This document shows, piece after piece, positions 2,742 to 33,500 of a stretch of DNA of 64,000 nucleotides (position 1 is the stretch's first letter; every line of letters starts with the position of its first letter). The DNA is taken from contig OY760937.1 in assembly GCA_963664225.1 (NCBI GenBank), forward strand, positions 768,001 to 832,000. Direction: 5' to 3'. The notes under the pieces are model-generated. The model saw only the letters and a program-made list of their open reading frames with translations. It was not told the DNA's origin and did no database searches. Source of the DNA: Verrucomicrobiia bacterium (GTDB taxonomy: Bacteria; Verrucomicrobiota; Verrucomicrobiia; Limisphaerales; UBA1319). The position numbers were made by a program, and so were the translations under genes.

Positions 2742-3119
2742 ATCAACTAACTTTGACTTAGTGCCTTATTGGGGTCACGTCGTCACAATAAGAGCAGCGC
2801 TGGGGCTGTCCATGGGGGGATTCACCCCCTGGCGGCCCCGTCCCAGTGTGGCTGAAAATGGCGATGTGAACGGGTTGCCAGCAGGGGAAGGCCGATGGGT
2901 TTCAATGTGGGAACAGGCTATTTTGTGGGCATTCAGGGGCTGAAACGTGCTTTCAGCCCGTGTCGTGTTTTTGTCCGGTTAACCTTGGACCATTGACCCA
3001 AGCGCAGGGCAAAGTTCTCCTGGAGGAAGGCTGGCGTTTCAAAGCACGGATGGATGACAGGAATCTTCTGGCAACCCCTCCCTCCAGCTCCCTTGTATCT
3101 GATTTTCCATCTATTCTTG

Positions 3120-3325
3120 TTTTGTTTGAAAAGACGGAATAGATGGAACTGTCCTGCCGCCTGCAGGCGGCAGGACAGTGGCGCGAACGAGCTCGCCATT
3201 CCCTGGCATTGGTTTACAGCCAAATGCGTCGGGAGCCAGAGCCGTTCGTGTCTGTGTCCTAAACTCGAACCGTTGCTTGAGCGGCCTACCAAGTCCTGCT
3301 CGTATTTACAAGAAAGAGCCAGAAC
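3120..3325 (+). ncRNA. Putative IS110 bridge RNA (boundaries approximate)
   Basis: 5' hairpin 3149-3178; target loop CCATTCCCT (3196-3204)/GGGAG (3231-3235); donor loop ACCGTTGCT (3269-3277)/TACAAG (3307-3312) matching the circle junction. Confidence 0.75.
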
Positions 3326-3328
3326 ACT

Positions 3329-4255
3329 ATGACCACTATCTACGCTGGCTTGGATATTGCCAAGCTGAGTCTTGATCTCCACCTGGCCGGTCGTTCCCAC
3401 GATCTGCCCAATACCGCCGCCGGTCATCGCCAGCTCGTCGGACTCCTGGCGCAGCATCCGGGCGCTCACGTCATCTGTGAAGCCACGGGCGGCTATGAGC
3501 GTGAGGTGGCTGACGCCCTCCATCATGCCAGCATTCCTGTCAGCATCATCAATCCCGCCCGCGTCCGGCATTTCGCCCGCGCCCAGGGACAACGGGCCAA
3601 AACCGACCGTATTGATGCCGCTGTCCTCTCCGCCTATGGGCAGGCCTTTGCCCCCAAACCCACGCCGGCGCGTTCCGAGGTGGAGGTGCAGTTGACCGAA
3701 CTGGTTCGTCGCCGCAACCAGGTCCTTGAACTGCTCTTTGCCCAACGCAATCAGGCCGAACGCCTCACGCTGCCCAAGTTGCGCCGCCAGGCCCAGAGCT
3801 TGGTGCATCGTTTGGAGCGGGATGTGCAGGGAATCGAAACCCAACTCAAAGCGCTGCGCCAGAAAACCACAGAATTGGATGAGCGCGCAAAGAAACTCGA
3901 GGCTATTACTGGGGTGGGCACAATTACCGCCTTGGCTGTTTTGGCTGAGCTGCCCGAGCTGGGCACGCTCAATCGGGGGCAGGCCGCCGCCTTGGCCGGA
4001 CTGGCTCCACATCCCCGAGAAAGCGGGCAGTGGCAAGGCCGTCGCTCCATCGGTGGCGGAAGAGCCGCCGTTAGACGTGCCCTCTACATGGCTGCCATGG
4101 TCGCTGCGCGCTGCAATCGCCAACTCAAGGAGTTCTACAAACGACTCCGATCGGCGGGCAAGCCCGCCAAAGTCGCGTTCACCGCCGTCATGCGCAAACT
4201 CATTGTTCTGATGAACCAAATCCTCAAAAATCCACATTTTGAACTCTCAAATTAA
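3329..4255 (+). CDS. IS110-family recombinase/transposase
   Basis: DEDD RuvC-like motifs GLDIAK, EATGGYE, KTDRIDA; C-terminal ESG motif; GRAAVRRALYMAA. Confidence 0.95.
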   Translation: MTTIYAGLDIAKLSLDLHLAGRSHDLPNTAAGHRQLVGLLAQHPGAHVICEATGGYEREVADALHHASIPVSIINPARVRHFARAQGQRAKTDRIDAAVLSAYGQAFAPKPTPARSEVEVQLTELVRRRNQVLELLFAQRNQAERLTLPKLRRQAQSLVHRLERDVQGIETQLKALRQKTTELDERAKKLEAITGVGTITALAVLAELPELGTLNRGQAAALAGLAPHPRESGQWQGRRSIGGGRAAVRRALYMAAMVAARCNRQLKEFYKRLRSAGKPAKVAFTAVMRKLIVLMNQILKNPHFELSN

Positions 4256-4551
4256 ATACCGTTGCTCCCCGCTCGTGCCTCGCAGGGCGGGAGAGAAGAT
4301 ATGCGCCCATTCGGTTCACTCGGTTGGTTGGGGCAATTCTCCAGACGTCGGGCGGGGGCACCCGACACGATCAATGACGAACCCCCGTATATACTTTCAT
4401 GGCGTTTCAAGGGTTTTTCCAGTTTGCCAGAGATTTTTGTCCGGCGCCGCATTGACCCGGGCTGGTACGGAGCCGCGGTGTTGGCGATGGGACTTCGGCC
4501 ATAAGATTCACGCGGCGGCACAATGGCGCCGAGGGTGATGATCGAAATGAC

Positions 4552-33148: not shown

Positions 33149-33451
33149 GGTCGATTTCGTCCAGGGGACATGCCTTGGGACCCAGCATCGTTGAGTTGGG
33201 ACTTGGGGCGGCCTGGATTCAATGATTGAAGTATTACGCCGGTTAAAGAGGTGATGCAAAAATATTCGTCAGGGAGTGTAATCGAGTAGTGCATGACAAG
33301 ACGTCTGGCGAAGAGAATTCTACATGGATATTCAGGATGGACAGGATTTTTAACCACGGAAATGACGGATGGCACGGATAGGGAAATTATTTCCGAGATG
33401 GTATTAAAGGCGGTCGTTCAGAGCGCCGATGGATGGGAAAAGTTTCTGGCT

Positions 33452-33500
33452 GCCCCTCCCACCAGCTCCCTCCCCGCTCGTGCCTCGCAGGGCGGGAGAG
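33452..33500 (+). repeat. REP-like repeat = empty IS110 target
   Basis: CCAGCTCCCTCCCCGCTCGTGCCTCGCAGGGCGGGAGAG equals the joined IS110 flanks. Confidence 0.85.

Follow-up and report, generated by a model that had tools for sequence, protein, structure and literature searches.

The stretch of DNA analyzed here (the window, 64,000 nucleotides from a Verrucomicrobiia bacterium) contains an insertion sequence of the IS110 group, 1173 bp in length and with an intact open reading frame (ORF). It consists of a 235-nt left end, a 927-nt ORF, and an 11-nt right end, and the 235 nt upstream of the ORF hold no credible gene. The features of the element and of its flanks are collected in Table 1. The ORF product was matched by the profiles PF01548 (residues 8-144, 70.7 bits with a cut-off of 29, E = 1.6e-19) and PF02371 (residues 188-271, 72.8 bits with a cut-off of 21.3, E = 3e-20). 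When solved structures were searched using phmmer, chain 8wt6_A of IS621, the IS110-group element of Escherichia coli whose bridge RNA was described by Durrant et al. 2024 (PMC11208160) and Hiraizumi et al. 2024 (PMC11208158), matched residues 5-301 with E = 1.6e-37, and an ISCro4 structure matched with E = 3.6e-37. A hand count of the printed alignment to IS621 gave about 107 identities in 297 positions, or approximately 36%. The residues listed as essential for IS621 in PMC11208158 (D11, E60, D102, D105, and S241) stand opposite the RuvC-like DEDD residues D9, E51, D93, and D96 and the Tnp-domain serine S232, which is followed by G233, and thus all five catalytic residues are kept. The first-pass annotation of this DNA, made from its letters, had called the recombinase distant and compact. 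The divergence is indeed moderate, but the identity, the E value, and the complete catalytic set argue against any great distance, and the 308-aa protein is shorter than the 326-aa IS621 recombinase by just 18 aa, a minor difference.

Table 1. Coordinates of the element, its predicted bridge RNA, and its target, numbered from the first letter of the window
Feature	Positions	Strand	Remarks
Whole IS110-group element	3094..4266	+	Length includes the right-end copy of the CT core (4265-4266)
Left target half CAGCTCC and core CT (3092-3093)	3085..3093	+	Within a dispersed repeat member
Non-coding left end, 235 nt, encoding the predicted bridge RNA	3094..3328	+	Starts with TGTAT, the right donor half
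5' stem-loop 1	3106..3147	+	Double changes, e.g., columns 25/48: CG in 6 sequences, UA in 3
5' stem-loop 2, perfect 14-bp G+C-rich hairpin	3148..3179	+	Double changes at five pairs (4-5 of 10 sequences)
Target-binding loop (TBL) module	3180..3252	+	Base stem 3180-3195 with 3239-3252
Left target guide CCAUUCC-CU	3196..3204	+	Same sense as left target plus core; 6/9 match in copies A and B
TBL distal hairpin	3206..3227 (approx.)	+	Columns 116-137; compensatory changes in 6 of 9 pairs (10-sequence consensus)
Right target guide GUCGGGAG	3228..3235	+	Core-proximal GGGAG (3231-3235) is the complement of CT-CCC
Donor-binding loop (DBL) module	3264..3318	+	Inner base stem CUC (3264-3266) with GAG (3316-3318); distal hairpin 3279-3301
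Left donor guide ACCGUUG-CU	3269..3277	+	Identical to right end plus core
Right donor guide UACAAG	3307..3312	+	Complement of core plus left-end start (CT-TGTA)
Recombinase gene, 308 aa plus stop	3329..4255	+	PF01548, PF02371; alignment to IS621 chain 8wt6_A
Right end: left donor half ACCGTTG (4258-4264) and core CT (4265-4266)	4256..4266	+
Right target half (CCCCG...)	4267..4303	+	Same dispersed palindromic repeat as the left half

A search of the 5.78-Mb genome to which the window belongs identified five full-length copies of the element (A to E), with identities of 100, 100, 94, 93, and 92%. Each of the five starts with TGTAT directly after a CT and ends in ACCGTTG-CT, and their flanks are unrelated. 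Since all copies share the same ends and have CT on both sides, the element can be delimited as window positions 3094-4266, with the right end ACCGTTG-CT at 4258-4266 followed by CCCCG at 4267-4271. Long terminal inverted repeats are absent, and a 4-bp pair, ATAC/GTAT, alone brackets the circle junction. An intact 308-aa ORF is present in A, B, and D; the ORF of copy C ends at a premature stop (269 aa), and that of copy E has lost 18 bp in frame (302 aa). Copies A and B are 100% identical and lie at different loci. Judged from this identical pair and from the total of five copies, the element is recently active.

The sites occupied by the five copies are of several kinds. Copies A, C, and E each lie within a member of a dispersed repeat, with the family around A differing from that around C and E, and the site of copy B is within a gene and that of copy D is unique. 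When the flanks of the window copy were rejoined, they aligned across the joint with 19 uninterrupted members of the repeat, 18 of which carry CT at the core position and which read TCCA(A/G)CTC(C/T)-CT-CCCCGCTCG around the site. This repeat is palindromic and approximately 55-75 bp long, CCCCTC(C/T)CTCCA(A/G)CTC(C/T)CTCCCCGCTCGTGCCTCGC(A/G)GGGCG(G/A)GAG; one of its members holds the window copy of the element, and the repeat is also present at window 33444-33500 and in 18 other places in the genome. Contigs from all four public runs joined position 3091 to 4265, skipping exactly 1173 bp. These contigs have 41 letters each on their shorter side and carry mismatches, and they probably represent paralogous uninterrupted copies of the repeat rather than a true empty allele. 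Contig depth at 4250-4303 was approximately 20 times that of the flanks, and in run X1 it was 524 at the right target half compared to about 25 further out. Copy B interrupts a 617-aa frame that combines a ThuA domain with a 3-keto-disaccharide hydrolase domain, PF06439 (L001:1068-1499 and L001:2676-4091, minus strand), and splits the latter domain so that profile positions 1-61 lie on one side and 66-187 on the other.

The left end folds far better than shuffled sequence (z = -7.7), with its modules in the order stem-loop 1, stem-loop 2, variable TBL, and conserved DBL. A consensus fold of 10 left ends, drawn from this genome and from Verrucomicrobiota metagenome-assembled genomes, had compensatory changes in 31 of its 70 pairs. 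A covariance model of the two loop modules was then built from 20 sequences, a search of the kind that the first-pass annotation had proposed as a check, and it recovered exactly 10 IS110 left ends from the 5.78-Mb genome (five each from this element and a second family), with no other match there at E values up to 0.01. Across 34 sources the model found 29 left ends, nine of which had not been used in building it; those that it missed (L053, L056, L058, L059, and L061) have partial protein matches. For the 28 distinct sequences, 89.9% of cells were paired compared to 77.8% in shuffles, 20 of 31 pairs changed on both sides compared to 11.6 in shuffles, none of 500 shuffles reached either the observed paired fraction or the observed number of double changes, and partners slid out of register paired in 31-42% of cases, all of these counts having been taken on the model-fitted alignment and hence leaning towards the model.

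The individual helices contributed unequally to this result. The TBL base stem (helix 1) had 10 of its 14 pairs changed on both sides with 95.8% of cells paired, helix 4 of the DBL was 100% paired with one double change, and the distal DBL stem (helix 5) had six of its eight pairs changed on both sides. The outer DBL helices were weak (65-68% paired) and were given no weight. The TBL distal hairpin was scored on the 10-sequence consensus, and its register differs between lineages on the 29-sequence alignment. A search of Rfam 15, which may contain no bridge-RNA family, returned only chance matches to miRNA-like hairpins at E values up to 10. A promoter scan found none on the plus strand near the element. 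A looser scan yielded sigma-70-like candidates with 7-8 of 12 matches, the best one across the circle junction being TTGCTT-17-TATTCT (7/12); we rejected these as evidence as too weak. The sole promoter-like site that the scan found near the element is TTGGCA-17-GATAGT (9/12, window 3363-3335) on the minus strand, facing leftward and outward across the left end, in antisense orientation to the predicted RNA.

Both loops carry a pair of candidate guides, each pair flanking a hairpin, and every string reported in the first-pass annotation was found at the position that it gave. In the DBL, ACCGTTGCTTG (3269-3279) and TACAAG (3307-3312) flank the hairpin at 3279-3301. The sequence ACCGTTGCT (3269-3277) is the same as the right end plus core at 4258-4266 and is present twice in the 64-kb window, as the guide and as the right end, compared to an average of 0.33 occurrences in shuffles. 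Relatives in which an element end has changed have a changed guide as well. The right end of L055 is ACAGTCG-CT and its left donor guide is ACAGUCGCU, that of L057 is ACCATTG-CT and its guide is ACCAUUGC, and in L054, where the left end starts with TATAT, the guide reads GUAAG in place of the CAAG carried by others. In the sequences compared, the predicted donor guides thus covary with the ends of their own elements. The guide bases that would read the core are not always CU, even where the DNA core is always CT (L026-L031, L033, L045, L064, and the second family): the left donor guide ends in CU here, in AU in the closest relatives, in UU in L033, and in CC in the second family, and the left target guide ends in CA in L045 and L064.

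In the TBL, CCATTCCCT (3196-3204) and GGGAG flank the second hairpin, at about 3206-3227. For the target CAGCTCC-CT-CCCCG, the reading of the first-pass annotation was borne out: the right guide is exact, GGGAG against CT-CCC, over 5 nt in copies A and B, and the left guide CCATTCCCT matches the left target plus core, CAGCTCCCT, at six of nine positions. The five copies fall into two sublineages with different target guides, CCAUUCCCU and GUCGGGAG in copies A and B and UUUCCUUCU and GCGAGGAG in copies C, D, and E, the latter with UUUCCUU-CU as the left guide and AGGAG as the right guide. The insertion sites are CAGCTCC-CT-CCCCG for A, GAGTTCC-CT-CCCTG for B, CCTCCTT-CT-CCTGG for both C and E, and TTCCTTC-CT-CCTCC for D, so that a G-to-A change in the right guide accompanies a C-to-T change in the target. 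The left guides also follow the targets of their own sublineage with the exception of copy D, which keeps CT-CCT on the right and has CTTC-CT on the left, with the base adjoining the core mismatched. The differences between the sublineages are concentrated in the target loop, at 14 of its 50 positions; the remainder of the left end differs at 6 of 185 positions and the ORF at 57 of 927.

We ranked all 538,889 CT sites of the genome by their agreement with each guide pair at the ten non-core positions. The real site fell within the best 0.66% for its own guide for copies A and B, the best 0.082% for C and E, and the best 0.48% for D. The real sites are not the top-ranked ones: for the A/B guides, the unoccupied sites include 2 that are perfect and 56 that match at nine of ten positions. 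In the comparison of the genomic insertion sites with the left guide, another check that had been proposed, the sublineages follow their own guides; 2-3 of the 7 non-core left-guide positions are mismatched in all five copies, and copy D departs from the pattern. The target of the C/E-type guide belongs to a second dispersed repeat family with 34 uninterrupted members (copies at G000:C1 around 1738419 and 3173222), of which 18 read CTCCTCCTT-CT-CCTGGGGG and 10 read CTTCTCCTT-CT-CCTGGGGG; these ten would match the C/E left guide at 8/9 positions and are unoccupied. The string AAGGAGGAG on the other strand had raised the possibility that C and E target ribosome-binding sites. This was rejected, as no frame longer than 69 aa lies behind either site and the flanks of both are members of the 34-member repeat family.

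The comparison of guides and targets was extended to relatives of the element. One search gave 9 loci with 58-87% protein identity, and a second covered a sample of 300 additional genomes from the same order. At E values up to 1e-40, 26 of these had a match, and the 7 genomes belonging to the same family had none. The start of the left end was definable for 31 elements and the right flank as well for 27, the four dropped being L042, L045, L051, and L052. Elements with unrecognizable ends or loops (L030, L031, L040, L043, L046, L053, L056, and L058-L061) never entered the count. For the right guide, taken as the complement of core plus right flank, all 27 self pairs had an exact run of at least 5 nt, compared to 102 of 672 non-self pairs, with mean exact runs, core included, of 6.37 and 3.51, respectively. 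For the left guide, taken as left flank plus core, such a run was present in 20 of 27 self pairs compared to 77 of 672 non-self pairs, with means of 5.44 and 3.04, core included. These counts overstate the independent support, since the 27 elements include many kin and 10 that share a genome. The guides themselves differ in most lineages. Clear examples for the right guide are L033, where CT-ACGGG is accompanied by CCCGUAG, L040, where CT-GCGGTT is accompanied by AACCGCAG, and L049, where CT-TCGGAA is accompanied by UUCCGAAG. Across these genomes, the predicted target guides covary with the natural targets, core included, and both pairs of guides, donor and target, are readable in the way that the first-pass annotation had claimed.

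The first-pass annotation had further proposed, from the 6/9 match, that the recombinase tolerates mismatches in the left target. The relatives suggest otherwise. Their left guides mostly have a conserved UU at positions 1-2 that rarely matches the flank, and positions 3-9 usually match, which probably leaves about 5 nt, together with the core, as the effective left guide. For the clade as a whole, a shorter effective left guide combined with a longer right guide is probably the simplest reading of the alignments, and it is preferred over a special tolerance of mismatches. Tolerance of one weak arm would in any case not be new, since recombination with half-matched substrates (the core and one matched arm) is reported for IS621 in a 2026 preprint (10.64898/2026.08.31.748434). 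Two relatives have lost part of the RNA: in L030 (180-403) 11 nt are missing, including the right target guide, and in L046 the whole target-binding module is missing and the donor-binding module is kept.

The second IS110-group family of this genome consists of five near-identical copies (F to J; G000:C1 3487120-3488315 region and L007-L010) with 56% protein identity to the window element. Its left end is 248 nt long and starts with TGTATG, and its right end is ACACCGTTG-CT. All five copies lie in a REP-like repeat, GTAGCGCAGACTTCCAGT-CT-GCCGTTTCGCAGG. The right target guide ACGGCAG pairs with CT-GCCGT exactly in all five copies, and the left guide UUCCAAUCU matches at 8/9 positions in four copies and at 6/9 in one.

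Compared to IS621, the window element has the same two-domain recombinase with DEDD and serine residues, the same CT core, a long left end, and a very short right end. The order of the RNA, from 5' stem-loop to variable target loop to conserved donor loop, is shared, and so is the sense of the guides, as in each loop the 5' guide has top-strand sequence, core included, and the 3' guide is complementary to that strand. Insertion into dispersed repeats is another common trait. According to PMC11208160, the pairing partner is the bottom strand for left guides and the top strand for right guides, core included, the RNA of IS110-group elements is located in the long left end, and the right target guide of some orthologues is longer than that of IS621; all three statements, as worded there, apply to the window element. 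The layout of an IS621 bridge RNA with a CT core, claimed in the first-pass annotation, is accordingly upheld by module order, fold, and the covariation of guides with targets and donors. Differences from IS621, in addition to the protein divergence described above, are a left end of 235 nt with two 5' hairpins as opposed to 191 bp with one 5' stem-loop, a right target guide that pairs over 5-9 nt in this clade (core included) as opposed to 4, and an effective left guide of seemingly about 5 nt plus core as opposed to 7 plus core. The host is a Verrucomicrobiota genome instead of Escherichia coli.

PMC11208158 describes handshake guides, in which the bases at the first two positions 3' of each core-binding AG pair with the opposite substrate at its positions 7 and 6; read by eye, the sequences here follow this rule only partly. 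For the target loop, CC against donor TG fits at one of two positions, the first base after GGGAG being able to pair with donor G7. For the donor loop, CAAG is followed by AA, which agrees with the TT of the C/E targets and disagrees with the CC of the A/B targets. The second IS110-group family has CA against donor TG, a fit at both positions. The element also resembles ISPpu10, an IS110 element of Pseudomonas putida that is described (10.64898/2026.03.19.712850) as inserting in copies of a conserved intergenic repeat able to form a G+C-rich stem-loop. The targets of copy A and of the second family are both palindromic repeats; unlike the ISPpu10 insertions described there, copies B and D lie outside such repeats. 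With the IS1111 group, as presented in PMC11208160, the window element shares the recombinase family and the principle of two guide loops. The element may already figure among the thousands of predicted orthologues in published supplements.

Taken together, the results described above identify window 3094-4266 as an intact, recently active IS110-group insertion sequence with a predicted IS621-type bridge RNA in its left end, a reading to which we assign a probability of about 0.9. The anatomy, the conserved fold, and the covariation of guides with both targets and donors are direct observations; by analogy, the RNA would be transcribed, the circular intermediate formed, and the reaction carried out as in IS621. 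The left end would give rise to a bridge RNA with two 5' hairpins, an internal loop that binds the target, and an internal loop that binds the donor. The donor guides together would read the predicted junction of the excised circle, ACCGTTG-CT-TGTAT. By analogy with IS621, a recombinase tetramer would assemble on two such loops, cut beside the CT core, and exchange strands.

An account in which the left end acts only as DNA, with sub-terminal binding sites for the recombinase followed by a 5' untranslated region, would treat the internal copies of the element ends as repeats recognized by the protein. The repetition of ACCGTTGCT at 3269-3277 and at the right end, which resembles a sub-terminal repeat, and the short inverted repeat ATAC...GTAT around the circle junction agree with such an account. 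It does not, however, predict a variable loop that tracks the flanking host DNA or helices that are kept through compensatory changes, and the protein is a clear relative of IS621, the RNA mechanism of which is solved; we consider it highly improbable. Another account would make this an IS1111-type element, from the same protein superfamily, with its seekRNA positioned after the recombinase gene. IS1111-group elements are described as carrying their seekRNA or bridge RNA in a long right end, with a short left end and sub-terminal inverted repeats of 7-17 bp. The right end here is 11 nt after the stop codon as against 235 nt upstream, and both loops lie upstream. This anatomy refutes the IS1111-type assignment, the chance of which we put at practically nil.

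A bridge RNA could be real without its present left guide having chosen the A and B sites, which might instead be half-match off-targets, sites guided in trans, or choices that predate drift of the guide, and the 6/9 match would then say nothing about tolerance. The match at A and B is limited to TCC-CT-CCC or TTCC-CT-CCC, copy B lies inside the ThuA/PF06439 gene and outside the repeats, better-matching sites are unoccupied, and half-match insertion is reported for IS621 in the preprint cited above (10.64898/2026.08.31.748434). Against this, relatives also show distal left-guide positions unmatched and proximal ones matched, a common pattern that points to a systematically short guide more than to a series of accidents, and the identity of A and B means that no drift has occurred since copying. 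We regard sites chosen independently of the left guide as unlikely, but as far from negligible. A bridge RNA whose target loop was recently retargeted is an interpretation that we put forward tentatively and hold to be less likely than not. According to it, the target loop of the two sublineages has been rewritten as a block (28% divergence compared to about 3% in the rest of the left end) with the donor loop untouched, each version fitting a different dispersed repeat family, which would amount to a recent natural retargeting by guides with an unusually short effective left arm (about 5 nt plus core) and a longer right one. If true, the sublineage pair could reveal the course of guide evolution and the minimum of left-arm pairing with which a bridge recombinase can work.

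The window element is a natural example of the bridge-RNA system described in 2024 and not a new mechanism, and the picture of how IS110 bridge-RNA elements work is unchanged by it. With it, a little-studied phylum gains a well-documented natural element of the bridge-RNA kind. The locus also offers a built-in comparison, with two versions of the target loop whose natural targets are known and a related second family in the same genome, and it is therefore a convenient starting set for asking how many base pairs a bridge recombinase needs in the left and right arms and how guides change in nature. Its most useful feature is this natural pair of differently programmed target loops.
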